A stretch of 64,000 bases of DNA from an uncultured bacterium (GTDB lineage Bacteria; Acidobacteriota; Thermoanaerobaculia; Multivoradales; J023), in the NCBI GenBank assembly GCA_965366625.1, contig CBDUGP010000038.1, positions 4,239-68,238 on the forward strand. Direction: 5' to 3'. The notes under the pieces were generated by a model. It did no database searches. It was given only the letters and a program-made list of their open reading frames with translations, and was not told the DNA's origin. Positions 5,313 through 41,813 of this stretch are shown here, in pieces (position 1 is the first letter of the stretch; every line of letters begins with the position of its first letter). The position numbers and the translations under genes are program-made.

Positions 5313-7879
5313 CCGAGCCCATGGGTCTTGGTGCGGCCGGGGGCATCGGACGAGCTGCCGATGGGGCTACCCGGGGGAGACGGAGGGGCGCCGCCAACTT
5401 GCAAGTCCGTGTCGAAGGGACGATCCGAGAATCGATCGATCGTTGTGGCCAGCCACTTCTCGTGTCCTCCGCCGCCGGCCAATTGATCGCTGAGCTGCTC
5501 GAGGTATTGGTCGACCCGGAATCGAACTTCACCTGAGACCTGATGGTCGGCGCTCAAGATCATTAGGTGATGGAGAAAGAGTCTCTGGACTTCTCGGCGA
5601 ATTCCGGCCTGCCGGGATGTCTCTTGAGCCGGCGCGAAGACCTGCTCAGAAATTTTCGAGATAATCTCCCAAGGGCCGGGCATCATGGGTTGACGGCGGT
5701 TGAAATCCGCTGCCCGCGCCAAACGCTCGGGATTTAAGAGCGCAACCAACACTTGGTCAGCGGCGGTAGCCGCGGCGCCGAGCGGGTCGAAAATCAGCTC
5801 CGAAGCACCCTGAAACATCTCGCGGTTGCGTGGGTAGCGGAACGGCCGCGGGGCCATGAGCTCGATGATTCGATCCGGAAGGTCGAGATTCTTGGGCTCC
5901 AGCATGCGCAATACGACGTCCAGTGCACGCTCCTGGCGTGCCGCGGAAATGGGCGTCGTCACCGCTTGTCCGTCGCCGTTGATGGCATAGGAATATTCCA
6001 GGCCACCGACGGTCTTGACGGCGGCATCGAGCTGGTATCGATGGTACAAATAGACTGGCGCCAAAACCTCCTGCAGCAAGGCAACTGGCTGTCCTTTCGC
6101 TAAATTATCGAGGCCGAATCGGTCCAAGGCCCGTTCTCTCACGATTAGGATTTCTTCCAGCGCTTCCACGGCATCAGACCCGTTGTCCCACAGGCTGGCG
6201 CGGGGATCCGACGCTCCGGGAGGCCTAGCGTCTTCATCGGTGAGGAAGAGCAGACCTTCATTCAGGGATTCTTGGACAATGGCATCGAGGCTCTGCTGCT
6301 GCTCGGTGCCGGCTCCGAGTTCGCTGTAGCCGTAGCGGATCGAAAGCACGTCCCACTTCCCCACTCCAATCCCGTAGGCCTTGGAGGCGTCTAAGCTTCC
6401 GTCCTCAGAGGCTTGAATCCACGGGGCTGGATAGTCCATGACCGATTCCCGATCGCCATAAGTCGAGGCTGCGAAGTTGTGGGTCAGGCCAAGGGTGTGT
6501 CCGACCTCGTGGGCTGCCAGCTGCCGAATTCTCGCCAAGGCCAGCTCCAATGGATCGTTCGGACCTCCTTTGCCGGTCTCACCGGCGCCGAATAGGCCTT
6601 CGAAGATCAACCGATCTTGGCGCACACGCAACGAGCCGAGGCTGACGTGACCTTTGATGATCTCACCGGTCCGGGGGTCGGTGATGGCGTTGCCGTAAGA
6701 CCATCCCCGAGTCGATCGATGGACCCACTGGATCACGTTGTATCTGATGTCCAAAGGATGGACGTCTTCGGGCAAGAGCTTGACCTGGTAACCGTCGATG
6801 AAACCGGCCTCTTCGAAGGCTTTCGACCACCAGCGGGCTCCTTCGAGCAGCGCGCTCCGAATCGGCTCGGGCGCGCCGTGGTCGACGTAATAAATGATCG
6901 GCTCCACCGCCTTTGATTTGGCGGCTCCCGGATTTTTCTTGATGAGTCGATGGCGTGCGATCCATCGTTTCTGAATCGGCTCGGTCAAAGGTGCCGCATA
7001 ATCCGCGTAATCCGGACCGAAGAACGCCATTCTAGGATCGGCTCGGCGCGGCTCAAAGCCATCGTCCGGCAGGCGGATCAAGGAATGGTGTTGGACCAAG
7101 CTAAAAGACCCACCGGTGGGCGCGGTTTGTTGGATCAGCTCCCCCGGCTCGTCGGCATCGAGCTGGTAGGTCAAAAGGGCTTCCAGCTCAAGGTTGTCGG
7201 GGAACGATAGACAAGCTCCAAAGTCCACGGCGGACCTATCGACATCCAGGCTGTAGCGTCCCTGTTCCGTTTCGCGGGTGGTGGCTTCGACTTGGTGAGC
7301 ATCTCGGATCAGGAAGGGGGCGATGTCCACTAGAACGGAGCCATCCTCATTTTTTGCCGCAACTGCCCCGGCCCACAGCACCGAAGGCGCAAAGCTTTCG
7401 GCGGTCGCCAGCCGTTCGCCGGCTTCTGTGGTGTCGGCACGAAAGTCGAGATTGGCGGCTTGAAAAAGGACCCTATTTCCCAGGACTCGAATGTCGATGA
7501 TGTAGGTATTCTTGATTTGGCCTCGATCGAGACCGACGGGATTTGAGCCTAGGCCTGTCCTCAGGCCTTCGACATAAAGAATCCGTTCACTCACGTCGCC
7601 TGCCGCTGGGGCGGGCAGGCGCAGCCAATAGCTGCCTCGATCCGGATCGGGATAGGTCGTTAGAAAACCGGCCTTGGCACTCAGACCTCGGGTTTTCTTG
7701 TCGACGGTCGGTAGATCGTCATCGCTGGGGTCACTCTCGTCAGAGTGGCTTTGGTCCTTTTTTTCGGGTCCCGGTTCTGCTGAGGAACCCTGGGCAGCCG
7801 GCGGAATAAGCCAGCTCCAACCGAGACACAACAGCCCAAAAAGAGCGACAAGGATAGATGACGATGAATGGCGCGGCAT
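5285..7879 (-). CDS. Secreted zinc-dependent metalloprotease (DUF5117/DUF4953-type)
   Basis: Signal peptide MPRHSSSSILVALFGLLCLGWSWLIPPAAQG with GGAGGA RBS 5 nt upstream; zincin motif 'HEVGHTLGLTHNF' plus downstream 'VMDY'; 864 aa. Confidence 0.85.
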   Translation of the reverse strand: MPRHSSSSILVALFGLLCLGWSWLIPPAAQGSSAEPGPEKKDQSHSDESDPSDDDLPTVDKKTRGLSAKAGFLTTYPDPDRGSYWLRLPAPAAGDVSERILYVEGLRTGLGSNPVGLDRGQIKNTYIIDIRVLGNRVLFQAANLDFRADTTEAGERLATAESFAPSVLWAGAVAAKNEDGSVLVDIAPFLIRDAHQVEATTRETEQGRYSLDVDRSAVDFGACLSFPDNLELEALLTYQLDADEPGELIQQTAPTGGSFSLVQHHSLIRLPDDGFEPRRADPRMAFFGPDYADYAAPLTEPIQKRWIARHRLIKKNPGAAKSKAVEPIIYYVDHGAPEPIRSALLEGARWWSKAFEEAGFIDGYQVKLLPEDVHPLDIRYNVIQWVHRSTRGWSYGNAITDPRTGEIIKGHVSLGSLRVRQDRLIFEGLFGAGETGKGGPNDPLELALARIRQLAAHEVGHTLGLTHNFAASTYGDRESVMDYPAPWIQASEDGSLDASKAYGIGVGKWDVLSIRYGYSELGAGTEQQQSLDAIVQESLNEGLLFLTDEDARPPGASDPRASLWDNGSDAVEALEEILIVRERALDRFGLDNLAKGQPVALLQEVLAPVYLYHRYQLDAAVKTVGGLEYSYAINGDGQAVTTPISAARQERALDVVLRMLEPKNLDLPDRIIELMAPRPFRYPRNREMFQGASELIFDPLGAAATAADQVLVALLNPERLARAADFNRRQPMMPGPWEIISKISEQVFAPAQETSRQAGIRREVQRLFLHHLMILSADHQVSGEVRFRVDQYLEQLSDQLAGGGGHEKWLATTIDRFSDRPFDTDLQVGGAPPSPPGSPIGSSSDAPGRTKTHGLGCGFSENEP

Positions 7880-20481: not shown

Positions 20482-21620
20482 TGCGCGTCGGCTTCGACCT
20501 CTCCAAGGCCCACCATGCCGACGGAATCGGTACCTGGCAACGGGAAATGGGCCGGGCCTTGGCTGAACAGGTCGAACACCGCGGCGAGCCCGTTGCCCTC
20601 CAAGCTTTGTCTCTGACTGCTCCTTGGAGCCCTACTGCGCTAGGCCTGATTCAAAAAGCCATGGGCAGTCAGGCAAGCCTTTTTCAGTGGCCTGGGCTTT
20701 CGGCATCGACCGGCGGGTCCGGCATCGCACGATCCCAGGAGATTGCGGGATCCGAGGAGATCGTGATTTCCTCGGCCTGGGCCGTGCCCCCGGGTTTCGG
20801 CGGCACCTTATTTTTCGTCGTCCACGATTTGACCTTCTTGACCCATCCCCACTGCCATACCGAGGCGAATCGCTTGCATTGTTTAGCAGGCTGGCTGCGG
20901 GCGGCTTTGGTGGCCGAGGGTCGCTTTTTGGCCGTGTCCCAGGCCACCGCGGATGTGCTCTCGGGTTGGTTGCCGGCCGAGGGGCGAACGTCTGTGATCC
21001 ACAACGGGGTGAGCCCGTTTTGGCGTCCTTTGGAGCGAGACGAAGAGCGAGACGAGGTGGCCGGCATCCTCGACACTTCCTTCACCCTGCGGCCGGATGG
21101 TTTCGTCTTGAGTGTGGGCTCTTTCGAGCCGCGCAAGAACCTCGACGGCTTGTTGACCGCACATCAACGGCTGCCCGACGAGCTGCGTCAACGATTCCCG
21201 CTAGTGTTGGCCGGCAGCCAGGGCTGGAAGAACGAGCGACTTATGGCACGGTTGGATCGAGACCCTCAGGTCCGGGTCTTGGGTCGGGTCAGCGAGGGGG
21301 AGCTATTGGCTCTATATAACGGTGCGGCAGTCTTTGCGTATCCTTCCCTGGCCGAGGGTTTCGGTTTGCCGGCGGCGGAAGCCTTGGCCTGTGGGACTGC
21401 AGTTTTGGCGTCCAATTCCTCCTCCCTGCCCGAGGTGGTCGGAAAAGCGGCGGAAATGGTGGATCCCGAGCTGCCCGAGGCCATATCCTCAGCCCTTGCG
21501 AAGTTGCTCACGGATTCCCAAATGCGACAGGATCTGGCCGACCGGGGGCCCGCCCAAGCAGCACGGTTCTCTTGGCAAAAGTCGGCCGCAAAGCTCTTGG
21601 ATCTGATCCTCGATCCTTGA
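20481..21620 (+). CDS. Glycosyltransferase family 4 (GT-B, GT1 superfamily)
   Basis: 'SFEPRKNLDGLL', 'LVLAGSQGW', 'AAVFAYPSLAEGFGLPAAEALACGTAVLASNSSSLPEVVG' (E-X7-E region). Confidence 0.85.
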   Translation: MRVGFDLSKAHHADGIGTWQREMGRALAEQVEHRGEPVALQALSLTAPWSPTALGLIQKAMGSQASLFQWPGLSASTGGSGIARSQEIAGSEEIVISSAWAVPPGFGGTLFFVVHDLTFLTHPHCHTEANRLHCLAGWLRAALVAEGRFLAVSQATADVLSGWLPAEGRTSVIHNGVSPFWRPLERDEERDEVAGILDTSFTLRPDGFVLSVGSFEPRKNLDGLLTAHQRLPDELRQRFPLVLAGSQGWKNERLMARLDRDPQVRVLGRVSEGELLALYNGAAVFAYPSLAEGFGLPAAEALACGTAVLASNSSSLPEVVGKAAEMVDPELPEAISSALAKLLTDSQMRQDLADRGPAQAARFSWQKSAAKLLDLILDP

Positions 21621-21700
21621 CGGACCCGGAGAACCGAAGATCTCGACGAGCCTCCCGGCTCAAATCTATCCAGCCCCCGGGCCTTAGACGGAACCATCGG

Positions 21701-24301
21701 ATGACGACACCCCTCAACGCCTGCACCATCGTGTCGAAGAATTACATCTGTTATGCGCGGGTGTTGTGCGACTCGTTCTTGGACCATCACCCGGACGGAC
21801 GGTTCTTCGTGTTGTTGGTGGATCGCAACGACGGCTCGATCGACGTCGATGGGGAAAAGTTCACGCTCTTTGAAGCGGAAGACCTTGCCAACATCCCCCG
21901 TCGGGATGCGTTTCTCTTCAAATACACGTTGTTGGAGTGCAATACGGCGGTCAAACCCTTCTTCCTCGAGCACCTGATCGAGGCCTACGACCTGCCGAAT
22001 CTGGTCTATTTCGATCCGGACATCATGATCACCGGCAGCCTCGACCAGCTGGCCCAGTATGTCGAGCAGTATTCGGTGGTGCTGACGCCACATTTAACCG
22101 ACCCGATCGAAGACCAAGCCTTTCCCAACGAGCAGGCGATCCTGCAATCCGGCTCTTATAATTTGGGCTTCGTGGCCTTCCGAACCACCGAAACCAGCCG
22201 ACGTGTGATCCGCTGGTGGCAGGAACGCCTCTACGACAAATGTGTGGTGCGCATTGCCGACGGTTTGTTCGTCGATCAAAAGTGGATGGACTTGGTGCCG
22301 GGCATGTTCGGTGGGCTGACCGGTGAGGTCCTGGTGCTCAACCATCCGGGTTATAACGTCGCCTATTGGAATCTTCACGGACGTCGGGTCACCATGGGAC
22401 CCGACGGTCCGGAGTCGAACGGCATGCCCTTGGTGTTTTTTCACTTCAGTGGCATTCGTCCCGAGAGCTTGGACGGCGTTTCGAAACACCAGGATCGATT
22501 CGAACTCTCGGATATCGGCGAAGCAGCCCAGCTTTACCGCGAGTACGCGGACAAGGTGATCAAAGCCGGCTATTTCGACTGTCGTCCCTGGCCCTATGCC
22601 TTCGGCCGATTCGATAACGGCGTGCGAATTCCCGACGCGGCGCGATCGCTCTTTCACGGCCTGACACCCGGTGAGCAGGCCACTTTCCATAATCCGTTCA
22701 CCACGGGGGGGGCGAACGCCTTCTTTGACTGGCTCAACCAGCCGGTTCCGGGCGCCTCGGTGTCTCGGCTTCTCCATCATCTCTACCAAAGCCGGAGCGA
22801 TCTCAACTTTGGCGACATTCTGCGCGAGCCCGGCTGGGTCGCGTATTCGGCTTGGCTGGCGGAATACGGACGTCACGAGCTGAATCTCGATCCGGAGATG
22901 CTGCGAGGATTGGATCTCAATCCAGGAGATTGGCTCACCCCCGTCGGGCTCAAGCGCCGAATTCGACATGGCCTCAAGCGGGTCTATCATTCAGGGCTGG
23001 GAAAGCAGGCCAAGACCCTGCTCAAGCGGAGTCTGGGTCCTGAACGCAGCCGTCGATTGAAGACACGGCTGCGCAAACCCGTGCCGGTCGCCGCCACCGC
23101 CGGCTCTGGAGTGGGCCACTCTAACCGCGGGATCGAGGTGAACTCTCTAGGTCTGAACTTGGTGGGTTACCTCGACGCGGAAACGGGCATGGGGCAAGCA
23201 GGTCGCTCGTTGGTGGCAGCTTGCAGAGCGGCGGCCATTCCCGTTTCACCCCACACTCTCGAGTTGGGGGTGGTGGCTCGGCGTCAACATACGGCCTTTG
23301 CCGGGGCGACGAGCGACTTTGAGCATGGGATCAATCTCTTCGTGGTCAACGCCGACCAAGCCCATGCGGTGCGCGATCACCTGGGGCGAGACGTTTACCA
23401 CGGCCGATACAATATCGGTCTGTGGCTTTGGGAGCAGGAGCGCTTTCCCGACAGCTTGCGCGGCGCGTTCGAGCTTTACGACGAAATCTGGACTCCGAGC
23501 AGCTTCTGTGTCGACGCGATCAGCGCGGTTTCGCCGGTGCCGGTGCGTCGGATTCCTTTGCCGGTCACAAGTCCCGAGGGCGCGGCAGACGGGACGGATC
23601 GAGCCGTCGACGACTTGCGTCGCGAGCTGGACTTGCCCCAGGGCGCGTTCGTTTTCCTGTTCATGTTCAGCTTTTTGTCTTATGCGCAGCGCAAGAATCC
23701 GGAGGCGGCGGTCCAAGCCTTCAAACAAGCTTTCGGCGATGCGCAAGATCGGGTTCTGGTGCTCAAGACCTCCCAAAAGGACTTTGCCCCCGAGGCCTAC
23801 GATCGGTTGGTGGCGAAGATCGGCGGCGCCGACAACATTCGCTTGATCGACGACTACTATTCGTCGGAGCAGGTGGAGACCTTGACCCGGGCTGCAGACG
23901 CATACCTTTCCCTGCACCGCTCGGAGGGGTTCGGGCTGACGCTGGCGGAAGCCATGGTCCAGGGCAAGCCGGTGGTCGCCACCCCGTATTCTGGGGTCAC
24001 GGATTTTTTCAACGTCAACAATGGATATCCCGTCCGGTACCGGCTGGTCACCCTTGAGCAAGACGTCGGTCCCTACCCCGCCGGCAGCGTCTGGGCCGAT
24101 GCGGACGTCGACCACGCAGCCGAGCAATTGAAGAGATTGGTGGCCGACGACCAAGAGAGGGCTGCTCTCGCCCGGCGGGCGCAGCAGGACATTCGCGACC
24201 TCTTGAGCCCTGAGACCGTCGGCGCCGCCATGAAGCGCCAGTTGACCGAAGTCCTCCGGCGGGATGGATTCAAAAAAACGCTGTCAATGCCCCTGGGCTG
24301 A
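21701..24301 (+). CDS. Bifunctional glycosyltransferase: N-terminal GT-A-like nucleotide-sugar transferase domain + C-terminal GT4 domain
   Basis: N-term 'CTIVSKNYICYARVLCDSFLDHHPDGRFFVLLVD...YFDPDIMI' ; C-term 'LSLHRSEGFGLTLAEAMVQGKPVVATPYSGVTDF'; ATG at 21701 (MTTPLNAC). Confidence 0.75.
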   Translation: MTTPLNACTIVSKNYICYARVLCDSFLDHHPDGRFFVLLVDRNDGSIDVDGEKFTLFEAEDLANIPRRDAFLFKYTLLECNTAVKPFFLEHLIEAYDLPNLVYFDPDIMITGSLDQLAQYVEQYSVVLTPHLTDPIEDQAFPNEQAILQSGSYNLGFVAFRTTETSRRVIRWWQERLYDKCVVRIADGLFVDQKWMDLVPGMFGGLTGEVLVLNHPGYNVAYWNLHGRRVTMGPDGPESNGMPLVFFHFSGIRPESLDGVSKHQDRFELSDIGEAAQLYREYADKVIKAGYFDCRPWPYAFGRFDNGVRIPDAARSLFHGLTPGEQATFHNPFTTGGANAFFDWLNQPVPGASVSRLLHHLYQSRSDLNFGDILREPGWVAYSAWLAEYGRHELNLDPEMLRGLDLNPGDWLTPVGLKRRIRHGLKRVYHSGLGKQAKTLLKRSLGPERSRRLKTRLRKPVPVAATAGSGVGHSNRGIEVNSLGLNLVGYLDAETGMGQAGRSLVAACRAAAIPVSPHTLELGVVARRQHTAFAGATSDFEHGINLFVVNADQAHAVRDHLGRDVYHGRYNIGLWLWEQERFPDSLRGAFELYDEIWTPSSFCVDAISAVSPVPVRRIPLPVTSPEGAADGTDRAVDDLRRELDLPQGAFVFLFMFSFLSYAQRKNPEAAVQAFKQAFGDAQDRVLVLKTSQKDFAPEAYDRLVAKIGGADNIRLIDDYYSSEQVETLTRAADAYLSLHRSEGFGLTLAEAMVQGKPVVATPYSGVTDFFNVNNGYPVRYRLVTLEQDVGPYPAGSVWADADVDHAAEQLKRLVADDQERAALARRAQQDIRDLLSPETVGAAMKRQLTEVLRRDGFKKTLSMPLG

Positions 24302-24360: not shown

Positions 24361-25254
24361 ATGGTTTCGGAAATCTTTGACCCCGAAAAATGGCAGCAGG
24401 TACCGGGTTTCGACTTTAAGGACATCACCTACCATCGGGCCAAAGCCCACGGCACGGTGCGGATTGCCTTCGATCGTCCCGAGGTGCGGAACGCGTTCCG
24501 TCCGCCGACCGTCGACGAGCTCTACAGGGCTTTGGACCATGCCCGCCAAAGCACCGACGTGGGCTGTGTTCTGCTGACCGGCAACGGACCGTCGCCCAAG
24601 GATGGTGGATGGGCCTTCTGTTCCGGGGGGGATCAGCGAATTCGCGGCAAGGACGGCTACCAATACGTCGACTCCCAGGGCGGATCGGAGCCCGGCCGCC
24701 TAGGACGTCTCCATATTTTGGAAGTGCAGCGGCTGATCCGTTTCATGCCCAAAGTGGTGATCGCGGTGGTGCCCGGCTGGGCCGTGGGCGGGGGGCACAG
24801 CTTGCACGTGGTTTGTGACATGACCTTGGCCAGCCGAGAGCACGGGATCTTCAAACAAACCGACGCCGACGTGGCGAGCTTCGACGGAGGTTATGGCTCG
24901 GCCCTACTGGCACGGCAAGTGGGCCAGAAGCGCGCGCGGGAGATCTTTTTCATCGGCGGGAATTATTCGGCGGAGGAAGCCCATCAGATGGGCATGGTCA
25001 ATGCGGTCGTCGACCACGCCGAGCTGGAAGACTTTGCCCTGGAATGGGCCCGAGAGATCAACTCAAAGAGCCCGACCGCCATGCGCATGCTGAAATTCGC
25101 CTTCAACGCCGTGGATGACGGCATGGTCGGTCAGCAGATCTTCGCCGGCGAAGCCACACGACTGGCCTATATGACCGACGAGGCCGAGGAAGGCCGGGAT
25201 GCTTTCGTCGAAAAGCGTGCCCGAGATTTTTCCCGTTTCCCTTGGCATTATTGA
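24361..25254 (+). CDS. menB: 1,4-dihydroxy-2-naphthoyl-CoA synthase
   Basis: Crotonase fold with MenB hallmarks 'FCSGGDQRIRG', 'VVIAVVPGWAVGGGHSLHVVCDMTLAS', C-terminal 'FVEKRARDFSRFPWHY'. Confidence 0.9.
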   Translation: MVSEIFDPEKWQQVPGFDFKDITYHRAKAHGTVRIAFDRPEVRNAFRPPTVDELYRALDHARQSTDVGCVLLTGNGPSPKDGGWAFCSGGDQRIRGKDGYQYVDSQGGSEPGRLGRLHILEVQRLIRFMPKVVIAVVPGWAVGGGHSLHVVCDMTLASREHGIFKQTDADVASFDGGYGSALLARQVGQKRAREIFFIGGNYSAEEAHQMGMVNAVVDHAELEDFALEWAREINSKSPTAMRMLKFAFNAVDDGMVGQQIFAGEATRLAYMTDEAEEGRDAFVEKRARDFSRFPWHY

Positions 25255-25272: not shown

Positions 25273-26643
25273 CTACGGCAAGACCCTCAGGAGTGAGCTA
25301 CCTCCGGGAGCATTGACCTCGGCCCGGACGGCGCCCAGCTCGCGGAGCTCTGGGGCCGAATCGAGGATCGGCACCGCCGTGACTCCGTCTGGGCGAAGGG
25401 ATTCGAGGCTGCACCTTCCAAGCTCCCCTTCAAGCTGCGTGTCGTTTAGGGATGGCTCGAATTTAGCGAAGACCCGGATGTAGTTGTCGGTCAAACCGGT
25501 CCAGAAATCTCCCCTCCGCTCCTCCCAGACCACGCTGGCGGTTTCGCCGAGTCGGCTTTGCCAGAAAGCTCGCTCGCTCTCCGCCCCGGCTCCACGCAGG
25601 ATCGCGGTCCGCTCTTTTTTGACCTGATGCTCCACCGGGTCGGGCAGGGTTTCGGCGTGGGTTCCTTGGCGGGGCGAGAACGTGAAAATGTGCGGCCGAG
25701 CAAAGGCCAGGTGCTGCACGAATTCAAGGCTCTCGGCAAATTCTTCGTCGGTTTCCCCGGGGAAGCCCACGATCACATCGGTGGTCAGAGCCAATCCCGG
25801 AATGTGCGCCCGTAGCTTCTCCGCCAAGGCTCGGTATTGATCGGCGGAATAGGGGCGACGCATTCGCTTGAGGGTGGCCGAGCAGCCGCTTTGTAACGAC
25901 ATGTGGATGTGGCGGCAGAGGCGAGGGTCCTGCCAAAGATCCAATAGGCGGTCGTCGAATTTCCACGGCGCGATGGACGTCAGGCGCAATCTGGGCACGG
26001 ACGTGCGCTGTAGGATCATCGAAACCAGGTCGAAGAGTCTTCTGCCCGCGTGCTCGTATTCTGAGATTTGCACCCCGGTGACAACCACTTCACGGTATCC
26101 GCCATCCGCCAGGGCCTGCACCTCTGCCACCACATCTTCGACGGAGCGACTCCGTTGGCGTCCTCGGGTGGTGGGGATGATGCAGAAGGAGCAGCGCATA
26201 TTGCAGCCGTCTTCCACCTTCACCAACGCCCTGGACAGGCCAAAGTCGAGTGGCACGTAGGGAATCGCCAGGGGTTCGGCGCTTTGGGCCTGGGGTATCC
26301 GGTCGGGAAAGGCCTCATGGACCTTCTGGAGCAGGTCGTCTTTGAGATCGTTGGTGACCAAGAGATCGACTCCGGCCAGGGCTGCCGCCTCTTTCGGAGC
26401 TTCGGTGGCATAACAGCCGGTCAACACGGTTTTCATGTCCGGATTCAGGCGATGGCCGCGACGTGCGGTTTTTCTGGAATCCCGGGCGGCCAGATGGGTC
26501 ACGGTGCAGGAATTGACCACATGTAAGTCGGCTTCGGACAAGGATGGAGCGAGGCTGTGACCCGCCGCCAGAAATTGTCGCGACAATCGGTCGACTTCAG
26601 CTTGATTGAGCTTGCAGCCCAAATTAGTGAAAAAAACTCGCAT
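25273..26643 (-). CDS. Radical-SAM methylthiotransferase, MiaB/RimO/MtaB family (MtaB-like)
   Basis: UPF0004 'MRVFFTNLGCKLNQAEVD', radical SAM 'GCNMRCSFCIIP', C-terminal TRAM-like region. Confidence 0.85.
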   Translation of the reverse strand: MRVFFTNLGCKLNQAEVDRLSRQFLAAGHSLAPSLSEADLHVVNSCTVTHLAARDSRKTARRGHRLNPDMKTVLTGCYATEAPKEAAALAGVDLLVTNDLKDDLLQKVHEAFPDRIPQAQSAEPLAIPYVPLDFGLSRALVKVEDGCNMRCSFCIIPTTRGRQRSRSVEDVVAEVQALADGGYREVVVTGVQISEYEHAGRRLFDLVSMILQRTSVPRLRLTSIAPWKFDDRLLDLWQDPRLCRHIHMSLQSGCSATLKRMRRPYSADQYRALAEKLRAHIPGLALTTDVIVGFPGETDEEFAESLEFVQHLAFARPHIFTFSPRQGTHAETLPDPVEHQVKKERTAILRGAGAESERAFWQSRLGETASVVWEERRGDFWTGLTDNYIRVFAKFEPSLNDTQLEGELGRCSLESLRPDGVTAVPILDSAPELRELGAVRAEVNAPGGSSLLRVLP

Positions 26644-26785
26644 GTGGGAAGGCATCTCTCTACGTCCGGCTGGGCTAGATCGGGTCCAGCAGCAGACTTG
26701 AAGGGGGAAGAGCCTGGCGCAGCGGGATCCCGGCGGAAGCTGATCGTAACATGGGGACGAGCAGGTGGAACTCTCGGGAACCGGC

Positions 26786-28321
26786 TCAAATTTTCGAAAT
26801 CTCGGCCGAACCCAGCAGCTCTTTGGCCCCGGGATAGCCCTTCAGAAGTACCGCTCGCACCGTCTCGTGGACCAGGGGGCGCAATCGGCGTGCTGCCTGT
26901 TGTGCGTTCAGGTTTGCTCGGTGGGTCGCCAAGCTCTGCCACATCTCTTGCCATTCCGGATGGCGTGCCTTGAGTTCGGCGGTGACGGCGTCCAACCACC
27001 GGCGCGATGCTTCATGGTCACGAAATTCCCCCCGACCGCGGCCGAAATGGGCGACGGCCAAATAGCGCAGTAGGGCTTGGGCGGCCAAAGAGTCGAGAAA
27101 AGTCTGGGACCAGGCCACGGAAGGCATCTTGTCGCCTTTGACCAGCCGATAACCCCGCGCCAGCCCGGCGCCTCCGACCGCACCGAGAATTGCTCCAGCC
27201 AGCATACCTCCGCCGAAAGTCAGCCCGCCGGCCAGCAAATCCGCGGCCAGCCCGCCGACCGCGCCGGAGACTACTCCGCCCAATAGGGCTCCACGTTCCG
27301 TATCGAGGGCATCCTCCCCTTCCACCGAAAAGGCGTCGAGCTGTTTGTCGATTTCGGCGGCCACCGTGCCTTCCAATTGATGGCGAGCCAAAAGTTCGGA
27401 CATCAGGTCCTCGCTGCCGTCGACCGCCCGCCGGCCGAGCGCCGCCATGGCCGCATCCTTCTCCGCTCGACTCGGGCGTCGGCTGGCCAGGGACTCTCGG
27501 TCGAGGGCCGCGCCGGCCAAATAGCCGGCGATGGCCTCGACGCAGCGATCCATCACGTCGAGGTTTCGGCGATTCCAAGCTTGTCTCAGCTCGTGCATCA
27601 AGGGCCGCGACGGCTCGGGCAGCAATGGCTCTAGATCCCGCAGCAGGTGATCTTCTTCGACCCAACAGCGGTTGTAGGCGTCGAGGGCCCCCACACCACG
27701 AACCACTTGGAAGCGCCGTGTGTGGTCTCGCCAACGTTCGATTCGCGGCGTCAGGGGTTGGTTTTGAAAGCTGGTATCGCCGGTTTGGTTGAGCAGAATC
27801 CATACCGGTACGTCGAGCCAATCCAGCAGGGCGAGTTCGTGGTCTACATAGCCGGCTTCGTCGGGCTCTTCGGTGGCGTTGACCAAATACAGGACCAAGT
27901 CCGCCTGCTCGCGCACATTGAGGGTCGCCTGCTGGGAGCACCAAAAAGGTCGATCGGTGTAGCGGTCCCAGGTTTGTTGCAGGAACCACCAAACCGGGCG
28001 ATCCGACCGCCGGAGGCGCTGGAGCAATCGGGCGGAGTCGCCGAAGCCAGGGGTATCTGCCAACAACAAGCGAGAGCCGGAGTCGAGCTGAATCAGCTCG
28101 AAGATCTCGGCCTGATCGGTAACGTGGGCTTGATCCAGAACTTGGCCGACGTCCCGCCGAAGCAAGGTCCTGGCCAGACTGGTTTTTCCCACATTGGTGT
28201 GGGAAACCAAGCTGAGGGTGATGTCGGTAGGCGCCGGCAGAGAAGGCTCAGTGGGCTCAGTGGGCTCAGCTTCGGACAGCTTCGGCTGCGGTGAATGCTC
28301 TGTTGAGTTTTCCGGGCTCAT
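26786..28321 (-). CDS. DUF3482-type membrane GTPase
   Basis: P-loop 'LVSHTNVGKTSLARTLL', G3 'LADTPGFGDS', long linker, C-terminal Gly-zipper TM 'GALLGGVVSGAVGGLAADLLAGGLTFGGGMLAGAILGAVGGAGLA'; start at MSPENS overlapping upstream stop (ATGA). Confidence 0.65.
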   Translation of the reverse strand: MSPENSTEHSPQPKLSEAEPTEPTEPSLPAPTDITLSLVSHTNVGKTSLARTLLRRDVGQVLDQAHVTDQAEIFELIQLDSGSRLLLADTPGFGDSARLLQRLRRSDRPVWWFLQQTWDRYTDRPFWCSQQATLNVREQADLVLYLVNATEEPDEAGYVDHELALLDWLDVPVWILLNQTGDTSFQNQPLTPRIERWRDHTRRFQVVRGVGALDAYNRCWVEEDHLLRDLEPLLPEPSRPLMHELRQAWNRRNLDVMDRCVEAIAGYLAGAALDRESLASRRPSRAEKDAAMAALGRRAVDGSEDLMSELLARHQLEGTVAAEIDKQLDAFSVEGEDALDTERGALLGGVVSGAVGGLAADLLAGGLTFGGGMLAGAILGAVGGAGLARGYRLVKGDKMPSVAWSQTFLDSLAAQALLRYLAVAHFGRGRGEFRDHEASRRWLDAVTAELKARHPEWQEMWQSLATHRANLNAQQAARRLRPLVHETVRAVLLKGYPGAKELLGSAEISKI

Positions 28322-29778
28322 GGTCGGCTTTCTCGCTGAGGCCAGAGGGCTTCGGCGGCGTTCTCGAGGTGAAGGCTCAAGGTCTCGGATTGATCCAGTT
28401 CGAGAAAGGCGACCGGCAGCTCGACGTGATCCAGAACCCGCTGCCAAGCCCGTCTTCGGGATTCGATGCGCCCACCGGAGTCGTCACTGAGTCTCTTTTT
28501 GAACGGAGACTCGTCGATCACCACCAAGAGCGACTGGCCGTCGACCCGTTGGTTGCGCAAGTTTTCGAGCCATTCTCCATGCACTTCCAGCTCGGGGGTT
28601 TGTCCGGCGCTGAATACCGCCACCCGCAGACCCGCCCCACCGGCTTCGGGCAGCTCGTCGCCGTAGCTGAGGTTCGGTGCCGTTTGAATTTGTGCCCTTG
28701 CGCCCACGAGATCCAAGAGCAAAGTCCTCAGGGTAGTCAGGGTCTTCTCGGTCGCACGGTAGCTGTAGAGCAGGATCTGAACTTTTTCCTCGCGGGTATC
28801 CACCGAGGCTTCCAGGCGCCGAATGTAGCTGTCCTGGAGATCGAAGGCCACTCGGCGGCGCCAAAGCTGAATGCGCAGCAAATCCCAGCCGGCCAGCAAG
28901 AGGCGCGGCACTCCGACTCCGAGGCCTGCGATCAAAGCCCAGGCATGGATCCAGGGCGCTGCGGGGCCGGAAGCGGGCGCAGCGATGGTGGCGGCCGAGG
29001 GCAGGTCCAAATCCAGGATGGCTCGGGCCGGTGCCAGCAGGGTCGCCAGAAATCCGTCCACCACCTCGACGCCCAAGAAAGTGCTTTCCCAGGTCGCCCG
29101 ATATTCGAACGCGACGCCTCGGGCGTACATGCCGACGATGACCCCGAGCACGGCCATCAATGCACCGAGATGGAATGCGGCGCGAATGCCCGCTGCAAGG
29201 GCCGGTTGCGCGATGGGCAGCCAAGCGCCAACGAAGCTGCGATGGATTCTCGCTTCGAGGCCTGTGTCGTCGGAGTTCGAGGCTCGACCGGAAGCCAGGG
29301 GTGAAAAGCGCTGCCACCAAGGTGCGTCGGCCGTTTCCCTCCGAGGAATCAAAAAGCGGATCGACATCCAAAGATAAATCGCGAGATTCCAAAGCAAGAG
29401 ACCCACCAAGGGTGGTGCCAGGATGTTGACCGCTCGGTTTGGACCGAGGGCGTTGGTGGCTAAGCCGAAAGCGAAGGCGGGAATCAACAATGCGGCCAAC
29501 CAGCGGAGAGGAATCTCGCGGCTTTGCAAGCGTCGCCACAGGTCGGGCCGGGTTTTGTGCAAACGTTCGACGATGGCCCTTGCTCGTAAGGCCAACCATT
29601 GTTTGGGGTGTGCATGCTCGGCGATGGCTTCGCGGGTCGCGTTCCGTCGCCACTGGACGGGAACCAATACCCCCTCCCGATCCTCCTGCTCCAACGCCCG
29701 CGCCAGCAGTACGTTTCGGGCATTGCCGGCGGAGAGGCGAAAGGTCGACATGGGTTCAGTCGTGGTCTGCTTCCCCAT
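28318..29778 (-). CDS. DUF2868-type membrane protein (partner of DUF3482 GTPase)
   Basis: Multiple TM helices, no catalytic motif recognised; adjacency and 4-nt overlap with DUF3482 gene; start ambiguous (Met at 29778/29793 with GGGGAAG RBS inside a 15-bp repeat, or 29751 coupled 4 nt after KS stop). Confidence 0.55.
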   Translation of the reverse strand: MGKQTTTEPMSTFRLSAGNARNVLLARALEQEDREGVLVPVQWRRNATREAIAEHAHPKQWLALRARAIVERLHKTRPDLWRRLQSREIPLRWLAALLIPAFAFGLATNALGPNRAVNILAPPLVGLLLWNLAIYLWMSIRFLIPRRETADAPWWQRFSPLASGRASNSDDTGLEARIHRSFVGAWLPIAQPALAAGIRAAFHLGALMAVLGVIVGMYARGVAFEYRATWESTFLGVEVVDGFLATLLAPARAILDLDLPSAATIAAPASGPAAPWIHAWALIAGLGVGVPRLLLAGWDLLRIQLWRRRVAFDLQDSYIRRLEASVDTREEKVQILLYSYRATEKTLTTLRTLLLDLVGARAQIQTAPNLSYGDELPEAGGAGLRVAVFSAGQTPELEVHGEWLENLRNQRVDGQSLLVVIDESPFKKRLSDDSGGRIESRRRAWQRVLDHVELPVAFLELDQSETLSLHLENAAEALWPQRESRP

Positions 29779-31414
29779 CCAGGTCTTCCTCATCCGGGTC
29801 TTCCCCATTCGCGCCGAGCCCATCCAAGGGCCTCGAAACCACGCATGCGTTGATGCCGCCTACTCCCATGGACAGCTTGCCCACCGGACCCTGGGGTGCC
29901 GGGCATTCCCGATCGAATACGAAGTGGTCGTGTACTTCGGCGATTTGGGAGTTCAGTTCACCCTGGGCCAAGGGCGTCGGAAAGAGTCGGCCCCGTTGGT
30001 AGCCCAAATATTGGGCGGTCAGTTCCCAGCCACCGCCCGCGGACATGCCGTGGCCGAAGGTCCCCTTTCGAGCCGAAACCAACACGGATTCGGGCATTTC
30101 GGAGCGCACCATCTCCACTTCGTTGAAGTCTCCCGGGGTGGCCGTGGCGTGGAGATCCCACGACGTTATCGAACTCGGGTCGACCGCCGATTCTTTGAAA
30201 GCGAGGTGCATGGCGGTGGTCGGCCCGTCTTTCGAAGGGGTGATGATGTGGTCTGCGTCCGAGGTCACACCGACCGCTACCGGCTCCATGCCCAAGGGTT
30301 TGAAACCCTTGCTTTCCAAGACCTCCCGGGCGCCGACGATCCACACCACCGCGCCGCCGGCGATGTGAGTGCCGCGCAATTGAGTCAGGGGTTTAGAAAG
30401 CTGAGCGTCGGCAGAGATCACCCTGGCGTTGTAGAAACCACCCACCGTGAGGGGGTGGGGCGCGGGGTCCGTCGCGCCGATCACCACGGCGTCGGCTTCG
30501 TTCCGGCGGATAGCGTCAAGGGCCAATTTCAGGGTGACCCCGAAGGTCGAGCAGGCCGCGCCCACCGCCAGGGTAGCTCCGGTGATGTGGCCCAACATGG
30601 AGATCTGGGCCGCTGCAATATTGTCGATATTCCAAAGCAAGTTAGAAGAGACGGCCTGCCAAGGGGGCAGAGGCACTCCCCACTTCTTCTCCAGTCGTCG
30701 CAGACGCCGTTGTTTTTCCTTGATCGCCGACAGCTTGCCGGACTCCACGTCGCCCTCCACCGCCACGCCTTCAATTTCCCGTTGTTCGGCTAGAAATTGC
30801 TGAAGCTGCGGGCTATGGCCGGCCCAGAACTGCCACCAGGCATCCTCGAGTTCGTCTCGCTCGTCCTCATGGGCTCCGTGGGGAGAGGTGGGAATTTCGG
30901 CTGCGACGACCGGTGGAGCCCCGAAGAGCTGCTCGGGTTCGAGGGCCTGGCCGCCCTCATGGGCGCGGCGAGCGGAATTGTTGTCCACTCGGGCCCAAAA
31001 TCGATTCCAACGCCGTTGGGCGCGGTAGAGCGAGAGGGACTGCTGATATTGGACGTCCAGGTCACCGAGACCGGTGCCGATATAGACGTGGGTTCGGGTG
31101 CCGAGGCTTCGAAGCTCCTCCTCTAATCCCGGATTTTGTCCCAGGGCTTGGATGAAGCTACCGATGGCATATTGAATCGGACTTCCCATTTTGCTTTCGA
31201 GCTGGGAGAAACGATTGGGTTTGAATCGCTCGATGACCCACTCCCGGTAAACCGAAAAATCAAATTCCGGTACGCCCACCAGGAAATTGTTCGGGCCGAA
31301 GCCGTCGAACGATCCGAGCCAGGAATCGGCCTCCGTCAGCCGGTCGGCAAAGGCGTCGATATTCGGTGAGCGGGGCGCTACCAAGCCCCAACCATAGATT
31401 CCCACTTTACGCAC
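29756..31414 (-). CDS. Beta-ketoacyl-[ACP] synthase (FabF/FabB-like elongating KS) with ~120-aa insertion and acidic C-terminal tail
   Basis: Active-site Cys 'GATLAVGAACSTFG', His 'HATATPGDFNE' and 'KGTFGHGMSAGGG' (Cys-His-His triad); GTG start with AAGGAG RBS. Confidence 0.8.
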   Translation of the reverse strand: MRKVGIYGWGLVAPRSPNIDAFADRLTEADSWLGSFDGFGPNNFLVGVPEFDFSVYREWVIERFKPNRFSQLESKMGSPIQYAIGSFIQALGQNPGLEEELRSLGTRTHVYIGTGLGDLDVQYQQSLSLYRAQRRWNRFWARVDNNSARRAHEGGQALEPEQLFGAPPVVAAEIPTSPHGAHEDERDELEDAWWQFWAGHSPQLQQFLAEQREIEGVAVEGDVESGKLSAIKEKQRRLRRLEKKWGVPLPPWQAVSSNLLWNIDNIAAAQISMLGHITGATLAVGAACSTFGVTLKLALDAIRRNEADAVVIGATDPAPHPLTVGGFYNARVISADAQLSKPLTQLRGTHIAGGAVVWIVGAREVLESKGFKPLGMEPVAVGVTSDADHIITPSKDGPTTAMHLAFKESAVDPSSITSWDLHATATPGDFNEVEMVRSEMPESVLVSARKGTFGHGMSAGGGWELTAQYLGYQRGRLFPTPLAQGELNSQIAEVHDHFVFDRECPAPQGPVGKLSMGVGGINACVVSRPLDGLGANGEDPDEEDLDGEADHD

Positions 31415-31528: not shown

Positions 31529-33370
31529 TCACGGTTTCGTGACCGAAGCCTGAAAGTCGGAAGATGACGAGCTGGACAGGTTTCGGTGTTGGTAGAGCCG
31601 GCCGTCCTCGAATCCCAGACCCCGATAGTAATGTCGAGTTCCGATCGCCGAGATGACCGCCAGGTTCTCGAATCCTTCCTCACTTGCCAAGCTCGCCGCC
31701 TCGTCCACCAAACGGCGTCCTAAGCCCAGGTGTTGTGATTTCCCGCGTCCCTCTTCTCCGGCCACCCCGCCAAAGGCCACGATGCCGCCATAAACGTGGA
31801 CCTCGCGAATCATGGCGCTGCGGCCCAATTCTTCGAGGAAGACAGCTTCCGCAGGCAGTGACAATCGGCAGAAACCCACAATCTTGTCGCCGGGGGTTAC
31901 GAATTGGAGAAAGATCTCGTCGCCGATCGAGGTTTGATAACGGGTTTTGGTTAGTCTCAGCTCGTCCGGATCCACGGCCCCGTCTCGAATCTCACGAGCC
32001 CGAATGTCACGGCTTTGGCGGCCTGTGTCCCGCAGCCGTCGCTCGACCACTTCCCGAAAGTTGGTGATCTTATTGCCGTCGACGATGTCGTCACCGGGGA
32101 TGTCCCGAACAATCCGAGTCAGGCGACAATATTCGGGGGTTTTGAGCATGGCTTCGGTGATCACCTCGAGAAGCTCGTCCTCGGTGTACGGACGCCACAG
32201 CCCGGATTCGAATTGCTGCATCAGCTCAGCGGTCTCGATCAAGCTACAGGGATAGATCTTGAGTTCGTCGGGTCGAAAGTCCTTGTCGCCGAAGAGTCGA
32301 TCGTAATCTTTGATGTCGTTCTGCGGATCGGAGCCGTAGAGATTGGGCATCCAATGGGCGTGCAGCTTGAATCCCGCTTGGCGGAGCAGCCGCACTGCGC
32401 GTCGAGTCGCTGCCACATCGTGGCCTCGTTTGTTGGCCTCCAAGACCTTGTCGTCGAGGCTTTGGAAGCCGATTTGAACTTTGGTGCAGCCGAGCCGTCG
32501 CACCCTTTCGACCTCTTGCTCATCGATGTGGTCGGGGCGGGTCTCGATCACCAAACCGACGCAGCGGGCGTCGGCGGATTCGTTGAGTTCTTGCGCGGCT
32601 TCCAGCTCCTCCCAGGTGGAAGATGCCTCGTGCTCTACCATGGCCTTGCCCAACCCACGGCCCAGGTAGGCGGACACCATTTGATTGTAGGTACGTTCCA
32701 TGGAATTGCCGGCGACCTCACCCTCAATGGCCGCAAAGTCGAAATCGCCGCTAATCCGAGCCGGTAGCTCGTCGGCCTTCTTGGGCGAGAAGTCGTTCAT
32801 CGCGTCGAAACAGCGTCGAATGAACCAGATCTGGTAGTCCTCAGGGTAGAAGGACCAAGTTCCACCGAGGATGATCATCTCGACCTTATCCGCTCGGTGT
32901 CCGTTGTGATGGTAGGTCAGCAGCCGGCCCAAGGTTTGGCCGTAGGGGTCGAATTGGTGCTGGGCCGCCCGTTGGGCTCCCGGCTCCCGTGCCAAATAGC
33001 TCTTGGGCATGCGCACGTCGTTGGGGCAGAAAATGCACTTGCCGGGGCACGGATAGGGCTGGGTGAGCACGGTCACCGGGGCCACGCCTGAGAGCGTGCG
33101 AATGGGCTTCATCCGGATCCGCGAGACAAATTCCTGCTCTTCGGTCCAGCCGAAGCGGTCGGCGAATCGTCGGAAAGCCCGAATGATTTCGCTTTTGGAG
33201 TATGCTCCCCCACCCATCTTCGGATGCCGCCGGATGATTCGATGGTAGCTTTCGCGGTCCAACGAGGGCGCGGATTGTAGATCCTCGATCAGGGGCACGA
33301 GGTGTGCCTCGTGGGCCTCGGGATCGAAGCTCAAATAGGAGCGGTGAGATTGCAGGTCTAGGGTCGGCAT
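31529..33370 (-). CDS. Elongator Elp3 homologue (radical SAM + GNAT acetyltransferase; tRNA U34 carboxymethylation-type enzyme)
   Basis: Radical SAM cluster 'CPGKCIFCPND', Elp3 hallmark 'VIETRPDHIDEQEV...GCTKVQIGFQSLDD', C-terminal GNAT 'HLGLGRRLVDEAASLA'. Confidence 0.9.
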   Translation of the reverse strand: MPTLDLQSHRSYLSFDPEAHEAHLVPLIEDLQSAPSLDRESYHRIIRRHPKMGGGAYSKSEIIRAFRRFADRFGWTEEQEFVSRIRMKPIRTLSGVAPVTVLTQPYPCPGKCIFCPNDVRMPKSYLAREPGAQRAAQHQFDPYGQTLGRLLTYHHNGHRADKVEMIILGGTWSFYPEDYQIWFIRRCFDAMNDFSPKKADELPARISGDFDFAAIEGEVAGNSMERTYNQMVSAYLGRGLGKAMVEHEASSTWEELEAAQELNESADARCVGLVIETRPDHIDEQEVERVRRLGCTKVQIGFQSLDDKVLEANKRGHDVAATRRAVRLLRQAGFKLHAHWMPNLYGSDPQNDIKDYDRLFGDKDFRPDELKIYPCSLIETAELMQQFESGLWRPYTEDELLEVITEAMLKTPEYCRLTRIVRDIPGDDIVDGNKITNFREVVERRLRDTGRQSRDIRAREIRDGAVDPDELRLTKTRYQTSIGDEIFLQFVTPGDKIVGFCRLSLPAEAVFLEELGRSAMIREVHVYGGIVAFGGVAGEEGRGKSQHLGLGRRLVDEAASLASEEGFENLAVISAIGTRHYYRGLGFEDGRLYQHRNLSSSSSSDFQASVTKP

Positions 33371-41599: not shown

Positions 41600-41676
41600 G
41601 TGGTACCCCCAACGGGATTCGAACCCGTGTCGCCAGCTTGAAAGGCTGGTGTCCTAACCTGGCTAGACGATAGGGG
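41600..41676 (-). tRNA. tRNA-Glu (anticodon UUC), CCA encoded
   Basis: Reverse complement folds as cloverleaf: acceptor gccccta/tgggggt, anticodon stem ccagc/gctgg with loop cTTTCaa, T-arm acggg-ttcgaat-cccgt, 3' CCA. Confidence 0.85.
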
Positions 41677-41813
41677 CACGCAAAACGTGCCGGCCGGGCG
41701 GGTGTGCTCACCTCCGCGGCGGACGCGCAATGTAGCACAGAGCCGGTTTGTTTTCCAAGAGGTAATTTCAAGTCGAGTCTTCCGAAGTCCATTCAGCCGC
41801 CAATTGCCCCGAT

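Follow-up and report, generated by a model that had tools for sequence, protein, structure and literature searches.

A stretch of 64,000 nucleotides from an uncultured acidobacterium (Thermoanaerobaculia; contig CBDUGP010000038.1, positions 4,239 to 68,238; hereafter the window) carries on its minus strand two adjacent genes for membrane proteins of the families DUF2868 and DUF3482 (DUF, domain of unknown function), the second of which has a GTPase-type domain. They lie in the co-directional run Elp3–ketosynthase–DUF2868–DUF3482–MtaB, an order described in an earlier note on this DNA and borne out by the open reading frames (ORFs) and by Pfam and NCBIfam matches. That note read the position of the pair between tRNA-modification genes as a hint of a role in membrane or translation stress. 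The question raised by the locus is whether the two proteins work with these neighbours or as a unit of their own, and what kind of unit they could form. The reading that we favour, and to which we give about half of our confidence, is that the pair is a self-contained inner-membrane G-protein machine, unrelated to the flanking tRNA-modification genes.

Comparison with other genomes showed that the DUF2868/DUF3482 pair is a self-contained two-gene module. A scan of species-level genomes returned at least 566 loci, and comparisons were made on the best 80. These come from at least eight phyla and include Acidobacteriota, Planctomycetota, Verrucomicrobiota, Beta-, Gamma-, Delta- and Alphaproteobacteria, Methylomirabilota, Binatia, Eiseniibacteriota and the actinobacterium Agromyces; the closest related locus (83% identity) is in a Thermoanaerobaculia (Acidobacteriota) metagenome-assembled genome. 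In four of the 80 loci the contig ends upstream of the GTPase gene and truncates the locus, which leaves 76 informative ones. In all but one of these (75 loci) the GTPase gene is preceded on its own strand by a DUF2868 homologue; the two were immediately adjacent in 71, and an inserted gene or a gap separated them in four more. The sole informative locus without it is L043 (4073-5647, Verrucomicrobiales), where the upstream genes, judged by eye, are sugar-phosphate isomerase-like and Gfo/Idh/MocA oxidoreductase-like. In 39 of 70 loci the stop and start codons could overlap as NTGA, and the junctions of most others fall within about 30 nucleotides (nt). The pairwise-identity matrices of the DUF2868 and GTPase proteins are correlated (r = 0.92), indicating co-divergence. 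The two genes are also neighbours in Pseudomonas aeruginosa (PMC12864544).

ORFs between the DUF2868 and GTPase genes were observed in L051 (6775-7884), L073 (about 6700-7860) and L028 (7286-7930), and gap ORFs in L072 and L078. The ORF inserted in L028 encodes a DUF4124 protein, the one inserted in Prosthecobacter a protein of about 190 residues with a zinc ribbon and a transmembrane (TM) segment, and in Lautropia an Abi_2 (abortive-infection-like) gene (187 bits) lies between the two partners. Insertions at several loci show that the otherwise tight junction can be broken.

In some genomes the two proteins are joined in one polypeptide. Searching with the in-frame 1002-residue fusion ORF of locus L041 retrieved proteins in which PF11067 (DUF2868), PF01926 (G domain) and PF11981 (DUF3482) occur in a single chain (P0241, P0244, P0246-P0249 and the L041 ORF itself); P0241 is a full-length fusion of 936 residues. 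Such fusions argue that the GTPase and the DUF2868 protein act as one unit.

The context of the pair was assessed by all-against-all ORF clustering over the 80 loci and by a Pfam census of 258 genes, the two nearest on each side. No family was found in more than 6 of 123 upstream genes or 4 of 135 downstream genes. Ketosynthase and Elp3 were found near the pair only within the close acidobacterial relatives L001-L008, Elp3 lay upstream of it in only seven acidobacterial loci, and MtaB lay downstream only in L001, L002, L004 and L005. Since no neighbour family recurs outside this clade, the tRNA-modification context is a clade-specific synteny, local to the lineage, and not a functional signal. 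The hint of a link with translation stress is not supported, because ketosynthase and Elp3 are confined to close acidobacterial relatives. A role of the pair in translation or membrane stress, exerted together with the neighbouring tRNA-modification enzymes or at the ribosome, is an extremely improbable explanation. It would agree with the Pfam label '50S ribosome-binding GTPase', the nearest G-domain relatives (Der and Era, which are ribosome-assembly GTPases), the co-directional arrangement of Elp3, ketosynthase, pair and MtaB with no predicted terminators between the genes, and the synteny kept in four to eight related acidobacterial loci. However, Elp3, ketosynthase and MtaB are missing near the pair in all non-acidobacterial loci, no tRNA or ribosome family recurs among the 258 neighbouring genes, no KH or other RNA-binding domain is present, and what lies outside the G domain is helical and bound to the membrane.

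The ketosynthase gene deserves separate consideration, as its junction with the DUF2868 gene is overlapping or abutting in all eight acidobacterial loci L001-L008. In this clade the pair might have been recruited to lipid or polyketide synthesis, working with the ketosynthase, for example in product export or membrane insertion. We hold this to be very unlikely. The ketosynthase motifs, judged by eye, fit an intact Cys-His-His triad, and one locus of a single-chain fusion (class B, described below) lies among fatty-acid and coenzyme A (CoA) metabolism genes, but some 70 other loci have no ketosynthase beside the pair, the ketoacyl-synt family accounts for 2 of 123 upstream neighbours, and there is no conserved acyl carrier protein or other lipid gene nearby. 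The coupling of ketosynthase and DUF2868 genes, whose conservation the earlier note suggested checking, was found to be kept as adjacency, but only in L001-L008, and its 4-nt spacing requires the ATG at 29751 as the DUF2868 start.

The GTPase is firmly a member of the DUF3482 family. It matches PF11981 with 69.6 bits (cutoff 29.2; E 3.8e-19) over residues 213-478 (profile positions 15-281 of 293) and, N-terminal to DUF3482, PF01926 with 38.5 bits (residues 38-178). Both families are present in all 120 GTPase homologues among the matches listed, where close homologues have E-values of 0 to 1e-130; these values and the at least 566 loci put the feature well outside chance. The partner in the window, taken alone, stays under the PF11067 cutoff (24.1-24.2 bits versus 26.8; E 3e-5; profile positions 20-172 of 315), so that of the two Pfam assignments made previously only PF11981 holds directly; membership of the DUF2868 family holds through the homologues, 40 of 49 of which match PF11067 in the alignment (best 1.6e-18). 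NCBI gives several homologues the name 'DUF2868 domain-containing protein', and the database protein P0121, identical to the window protein, has a precomputed PF11067 annotation. The DUF2868 alignment profile finds 2455 clusters at 50% identity, 1361 of them with E <= 1e-30, and nearly all of the best 150 matches span almost the full profile length.

According to the earlier note, its reading would be refuted by profile searches that placed the proteins in characterised families. Neither protein was placed in such a family by Pfam, NCBIfam or PADLOC, or by searches of the Protein Data Bank (PDB) by sequence, profile or fold, so that this refutation did not occur. The NCBIfam equivalogs scored on the GTPase were all below their cutoffs (HflX 22.5 bits for 216.75; Era 21.8 for 237; Der 17.7 for 306.7; HydF 17.0 for 325.55). 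Sequence and profile searches of the PDB gave only G-domain similarity to Der and Era for the GTPase and no match for the DUF2868 partner. Pfam searches at E up to 10 on five sub-regions added nothing to the two DUFs and a general likeness to G domains. Among the PADLOC defence models, the GTPase matched only LeoA (22.2 bits, E 1.7e-5) and LeoBC (14.7 bits), and the DUF2868 protein and the ketosynthase matched nothing. A defence-system reading, for which the LeoA match and the Lautropia Abi_2 gene could be quoted, was rejected in view of the weak scores, the co-divergence of the partners and the absence of defence-island neighbours.

The architecture of the GTPase was deduced from conservation, hydropathy and an AlphaFold2 (AF2) model (mean predicted local distance difference test score, pLDDT, 79.4; predicted template modelling score, pTM, 0.79); the segments are listed in Table 1. 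The deviant P-loop SHTNVGKTS, the DTPG G3 motif and the glycine-zipper TM segment noted previously are all present. Conservation was evaluated over 81 sequences across phyla, residues conserved in at least 95% of them being considered. The G1, G2 and G3 features of TRAFAC GTPases (S40-HTNVGKT, T68 and D89-TPG) are conserved at this level, with Ser in place of the first G1 Gly; SHTNxGKT is found in 79 of the 81 sequences and DTPG in all of them. The residue that follows DTPG at the catalytic-Gln position, F93, is hydrophobic, as in hydrophobic amino acid-substituted GTPases, and is equally conserved. A helical insert of about 45 residues (96-139) comes after switch II. The G4 motif reads NQxG in 79 of the 81 sequences and NKxD in none; the guanine-reading Asp is therefore absent, and specificity for GTP is not to be assumed.

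The best Foldseek matches to the G domain were the G domains of EngA/YphC, MnmE, EngB, IF2 and Era, and a profile search of the PDB gave Der (8.3e-5) and Era (9.3e-5). Era, EngA (Der), MnmE and EngB, of the TrmE-Era-EngA-YihA-septin-like (TEES) class, in which the catalytic Gln has given way to a hydrophobic residue, are thus the best matches by sequence, profile and fold, and they share with the pair's GTPase the G1 Asn of GxxNxGK[ST], the G2 Thr and the G3 DxxG; in Era, MnmE and FeoB a hydrophobic residue likewise replaces the Ras catalytic Gln. Unlike Era, EngA, MnmE and EngB, the GTPase studied here has Ser for the first P-loop Gly, NQxG at G4, Arg for the second Asn of the potassium (K+) signature, the post-switch II insert, and a stalk, TM hairpin and tail instead of any KH or RNA-binding domain. 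FeoB resembles the pair in that a TEES-type G domain lacking the catalytic Gln is joined via a helical domain to a membrane domain, and it resembles the class B relatives described below in uniting TM and G domains in one polypeptide. It differs in that neither FeoB_N nor the FeoB membrane domain was matched, that the domain order is reversed in the pair's fusions, and that the pair has only four plus two helices and a pseudo-G partner.

Foldseek against the PDB returned no fold match for the GTPase regions outside the G domain. The stalk consists of helices 220-233, 236-273, 285-313 and 320-332, with pLDDT mostly above 90. The hairpin contains the glycine-zipper stretch GALLGGVVSGAVGGLAADLLAGGLTFGGGMLAGAILGAVGGAGLARGY and is the only hydrophobic stretch of the protein (344-391). 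Its invariant residues are G353, A354, G357, A360, D361, G365, G366, G370, G372, G376 and G380, and its mean identity to the window protein is 64%, the highest of any GTPase segment (56% for the G domain), in part a composition effect of its richness in Gly and Ala. In the C-terminal domain, after the hairpin, residues 420-431 form the motif YLAVAHFGRGRG (Y420-xxx-A424-H-F-G-R428-G-R430-G431, invariant); the two arginines of YLAVAHFGRGRG could serve as an arginine finger or as a lipid-headgroup site.

The order G domain, stalk, TM hairpin and C-terminal helices, as seen in the AF2 model, is that of fusion dynamin-like proteins: mitofusin, atlastin and BDLP have a G domain, a helical bundle, a membrane hairpin and C-terminal helices. 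The GTPase could accordingly be a membrane-remodelling protein of the mitofusin/atlastin/BDLP type, which tethers, fuses, bends or repairs the cytoplasmic membrane through nucleotide-dependent G-domain dimerization, with the DUF2868 protein as its receptor or regulator. Adjacent paralogous pairs are common among bacterial dynamin-like proteins, glycine-rich hairpins such as that of Mic10 can oligomerize and bend membranes, and the weak PADLOC matches are to LeoA, a bacterial dynamin-like protein, and LeoBC. This explanation is nevertheless unlikely. The G domain is small (about 185 residues) and Era-like, Dynamin_N was not matched even at E up to 10, and neither the 50 best Foldseek hits nor the PDB profile search included a dynamin-family structure, the best matches being Era, EngA, MnmE and EngB. 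Moreover, an anchor or a wedge would not be expected to show the extreme conservation of the hairpin, or the invariant polar residues that the partner carries in its TM helices and periplasmic loop.

The DUF2868 partner was modelled with higher confidence (AF2, mean pLDDT 90.3, pTM 0.83). Hydropathy and the distribution of Lys and Arg fit an N-in/C-in topology in which both soluble domains are cytoplasmic. The N-terminal domain, with conserved residues E30, R44, A47 and R65, had no Pfam match even at E up to 10 and no relation to DUF3482 by hhalign. Four TM helices follow. The earlier description of this protein as polytopic is therefore right, but the statement that it has no recognizable motif is not: its C-terminal domain is structured, and W130-N131, H203, R220-G221, W276-x-H278 and P291-R292 are invariant, as is the periplasm-facing loop motif Y226-x-A-x-W230-E-S-T233 (YxAxWESTFL). 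TM3, this loop and TM4 together are the best-conserved part of the protein (44% mean identity to the window protein). Invariant polar residues of the membrane parts are N131, H203, R220, E231, S232, T233 and H278 in the DUF2868 protein and D361 in the GTPase.

The C-terminal domain of the DUF2868 protein is, we propose here, probably a P-loop-less copy of the G domain of its partner, that is, a pseudo-GTPase (for the concept, see PMC5593906; PMC12490416). Its conserved residues are G359, G373, P395-E396, D422, R437, R441-R442 and W445, and a Walker A motif ([GA]x4GK[ST]) was found in none of 49 and none of 60 family members. Foldseek matched it to the pseudo-GTPases CENP-M (E 5.6e-3, template modelling score 0.54 on the target) and IRGQ (E 2.6e-2), and also to Rab5 and RhoA. 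The likeness to CENP-M and IRGQ, with weak statistical support, lies in a G-like alpha/beta fold without a P-loop; unlike these two, the DUF2868 domain is bacterial, is tethered to four TM helices, is encoded beside its active paralogue and has no detectable sequence similarity to eukaryotic pseudo-GTPases. Alignment of the domain with the partner's G domain by hhalign gave an E-value of 1.1e-3 (probability 20%) for domain cuts and of 0.012 (probability 3.5%) for full profiles, with the same register in every run. In this register V-x-V-P-Y-S of DUF2868 faces L-x-L-V-S-H-T of the G domain, YGxE faces FGDS, LAQTPExEVHG faces VNAxEEPEEAGY, VVDES faces LLNQTG, RRxxW faces R...W, and DL faces LDA. 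Furthermore, acidobacterial DUF2868 members have S-Y-R-A-T-E-K-T where the G domain has S-H-T-N-V-G-K-T, and this S-Y-x4-E-K-T may be a remnant of the P-loop.

Two further groups of single-chain relatives bear on this assignment. Class B fusions (five Burkholderiaceae clusters, 824-831 residues) consist of the DUF2868 N-domain and four TM helices, followed directly by a true G domain (SHTNVGKTT, DTPGFGD) and by DUF3482. The true G domain occupies the exact position of the usual pseudo-G domain; its replacement of the DUF2868 C-terminal domain supports the pseudo-G assignment and suggests that G:G pairing can stand in for G:pseudo-G pairing. Class C fusions (787-804 residues) have the class B layout with a decayed P-loop (T-H-R-A-E-D-R-A versus SHTNxGKT); the nucleotide site of this family seems, from the sequences, to have been lost here a second time, independently. 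In both classes the gene stands by itself on its contig, and no additional partner gene accompanies it. The class C proteins P0254-P0257 (L081 3796-6183, L082 3426-5813) are encoded beside a hybrid histidine kinase and an RsbR/STAS gene.

A mechanism compatible with these observations can be outlined. The first component would be the 511-residue Era/EngA/MnmE (TEES)-type P-loop GTPase, in which F93 takes the place of Gln and the G domain is followed by stalk, TM hairpin and helical tail, and the second the 486-residue N-in/C-in four-TM DUF2868 protein with its P-loop-less pseudo-G domain. The ATGA junction would ensure that the two are made 1:1. The hairpin of the GTPase would pack onto the four TM helices of DUF2868 to form a joint six-helix membrane domain, and nucleotide binding and hydrolysis at the single active site would make the G and pseudo-G domains associate and dissociate at the cytoplasmic face; in single-chain forms without a pseudo-G domain, this role would fall to G:G pairing. 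The motion would be relayed via the stalk to the membrane domain, and the output would be a nucleotide-gated membrane conduit or a transport-like activity, following a FeoB-like logic, rather than mere anchoring. A G:pseudo-G heterodimer is, in our opinion, somewhat more probable than its opposite, as the fusions, the coupling and the co-divergence indirectly suggest. The gating or conduit output is put forward tentatively and is more likely wrong than right; it is preferred because the membrane parts are the best conserved, with their invariant polar residues and glycine zipper. The concept of a conserved NTPase with an inner-membrane partner has a parallel in YcjX/YcjF of Escherichia coli, and the parallel is one of concept only: neither protein of the pair matches DUF463 or DUF697, even at E up to 10.

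The same features could be arranged differently, as an envelope or membrane regulatory switch or sensor in which the periplasmic loop senses a cue that the G/pseudo-G domains relay to cytoplasmic targets, with neither transport nor remodelling of the membrane. The loop motif YxAxWESTFL and the cytoplasmic N-terminal domain of DUF2868 are possible input and output surfaces, the persistence of the P-loop-less class C is usual for scaffolding pseudo-enzymes, and in Thiodictyon the abundance of a DUF2868 protein differed between growth conditions (PMC6413534). However, no regulator or target gene proved to be conserved beside the pair in the census of the 80 loci, and a pure relay hardly accounts for so extreme a conservation of the glycine-zipper hairpin; we regard a sensor as quite unlikely.

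Several points weigh against the G-protein machine that we favour. First, the persistence of class C without a P-loop implies that nucleotide turnover is not universally required. Second, K+-activated TEES GTPases have two Asn residues, one in GxxNxGK[ST] and one five residues after the G1 lysine (PMC3466195); N43 is invariant, but the second position is an invariant Arg (R51). Third, flavodoxins match the DUF2868 C-terminal domain at levels similar to those of GTPases, Foldseek E-values being only 5e-3 to 0.1, and homology between pseudo-G and G domains finds statistically weak profile-profile support (probability 3.5-20%). Fourth, the AF2 confidence of the hairpin is low (pLDDT below 50 over residues 333-387), and its high identity owes something to composition, as mentioned above. 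Fifth, we infer both the heterodimer and the packing of the hairpin onto the TM helices, and a transporter with as few as six helices per heterodimer would need to oligomerize. Finally, either DUF is mentioned in the literature only incidentally and no functional study was found, in agreement with the earlier statement that no function is known for the pair.

The coordinates of the genes and protein segments are collected in Table 1.

Table 1. Genes of the run and segments of the two proteins, all on the minus strand (nucleotide positions are those of the window).
Feature	Residues	Position (strand)	Remarks
MtaB methylthiotransferase (outside the module)		25273..26655 (-)	TIGR01579 375.3 bits, cutoff 357
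GTPase gene		26786..28321 (-)	511 residues + stop; MMR_HSR1-type G domain then DUF3482
GTPase, G domain	33-218	27668..28225 (-)	Conservation, Foldseek, profile search
GTPase, G1	S40-HTNVGKT-S48	28178-28204 (-)	First Gly of GxxxxGK[ST] is Ser
GTPase, G2	H66-V-T68		In G domain; at least 95% conserved
GTPase, G3	D89-TPGFG-94	28040-28057 (-)	F93 at catalytic-Gln position; DTPGFGD stretch
GTPase, G4-like	N178-Q-T-G181	27779-27790 (-)	Conservation
GTPase, G5	L-D214-A215		In G domain; D214-A215 at least 95% conserved
GTPase, helical stalk (first part of DUF3482)	219-340	27302..27667 (-)	AF2
GTPase, glycine-zipper TM hairpin	341-392	27146..27301 (-)	Hydropathy, conservation
GTPase, C-terminal beta-hairpin and helical domain	393-511	26789..27145 (-)	pLDDT 90-97 (AF2)
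ATGA stop/start overlap		28318..28321 (-)	4 nt; DUF2868 TGA 28320-28318, GTPase ATG 28321-28319
DUF2868-family gene		28318..29778 (-)	486 residues + stop; full ORF 28318-29823
DUF2868, cytoplasmic N-terminal helical domain	1-88	29515..29778 (-)	Strand 10-15 then four helices (AF2)
DUF2868, four-TM domain	89-300	28879..29514 (-)	TM1 about 89-112, TM2 116-145, TM3 193-225, TM4 276-300
DUF2868, cytoplasmic C-terminal alpha/beta domain (putative pseudo-GTPase)	301-486	28321..28878 (-)	
Ketosynthase, divergent (outside the module)		29756..31414 (-)	PF00109 + PF02801; 3' end overlaps DUF2868 start
Bacterial Elp3, radical SAM/GNAT (outside the module)		31529..33370 (-)	TIGR01211 481.8 bits, cutoff 350

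The ORF with the P-loop extends over 26786-28447 (-); the ATG at 28321 was taken as the start of the GTPase, and its product is identical to the database protein P0001. For the DUF2868 gene, alternative ATG codons are present at 29823 and 29751. The ATG at 29778 is the likely start, since it is that of the P0121 gene call, since the MGK start is shared with the homologue P0124 and since AGGAAG is found 6 nt upstream. With this start, the DUF2868 gene overlaps the ketosynthase gene by 23 nt. The four-nucleotide overlap of the DUF2868 and GTPase genes reported in the earlier note is present, and its ATGA form may reflect translational coupling. A scan for consensus promoters and terminators was uninformative: it returned no promoter, and shuffled sequence gave more terminators.

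The ketosynthase, of 552 residues, is an atypical one. It scores only 118 bits on the FabF model (cutoff 494), its match to the N-terminal ketosynthase domain of Pfam does not begin until profile position 145, and it carries an acidic/helical insert of about 125 residues at about residues 130-255. The Cys of AACSTFG, the His of LHATATPGD and the K..FGH motif appear intact when the translation is judged by eye. The only RNA gene detected in the window by tRNA and Rfam searches is a tRNA-Glu(UUC) at 41601-41677 (-), 13 kilobases from the pair. On the other side of MtaB and divergent to it, an enoyl-CoA hydratase/isomerase family protein is encoded at 24361-25254 (+) (ECH_1, 178 bits; MenB-like by eye). 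A further gene at 21572-24301 (+) encodes a protein of 909 residues whose C-terminal part is a GT4 glycosyltransferase domain (PF00534 53 bits; PF20706 'GT4-conflict' 38 bits), of which about 650 N-terminal residues match no assigned family.

In conclusion, the earlier description of the locus is confirmed with small corrections, its interpretation is supported in part, and the misleading lead towards tRNA modification is removed. DUF2868 and DUF3482 are both catalogued families; the new elements are a G/pseudo-G model, an unusual G4 motif and relatives in single-chain form, which open the family to experiment. 'Two DUFs' have become a concrete and testable model, with an Era-like G domain, a putative pseudo-GTPase paralogue on a four-TM partner and a strictly conserved glycine-zipper hairpin, and the natural single-chain fusions offer ready-made constructs for structural work. 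It is possible, if doubtful, that the pair represents an unrecognized class of bacterial membrane G-protein machine, in which nucleotide-driven pairing of an active G domain with its dead paralogue, carried by two membrane proteins or by one fused chain, would gate a glycine-zipper conduit or remodel the membrane and in which the nucleotide, given NQxG at G4, may not be GTP. The instance in the window adds little alone. The interest lies in the family, which is widespread (about 2,400 clusters at 50% identity), includes Pseudomonas aeruginosa and is without a published function.

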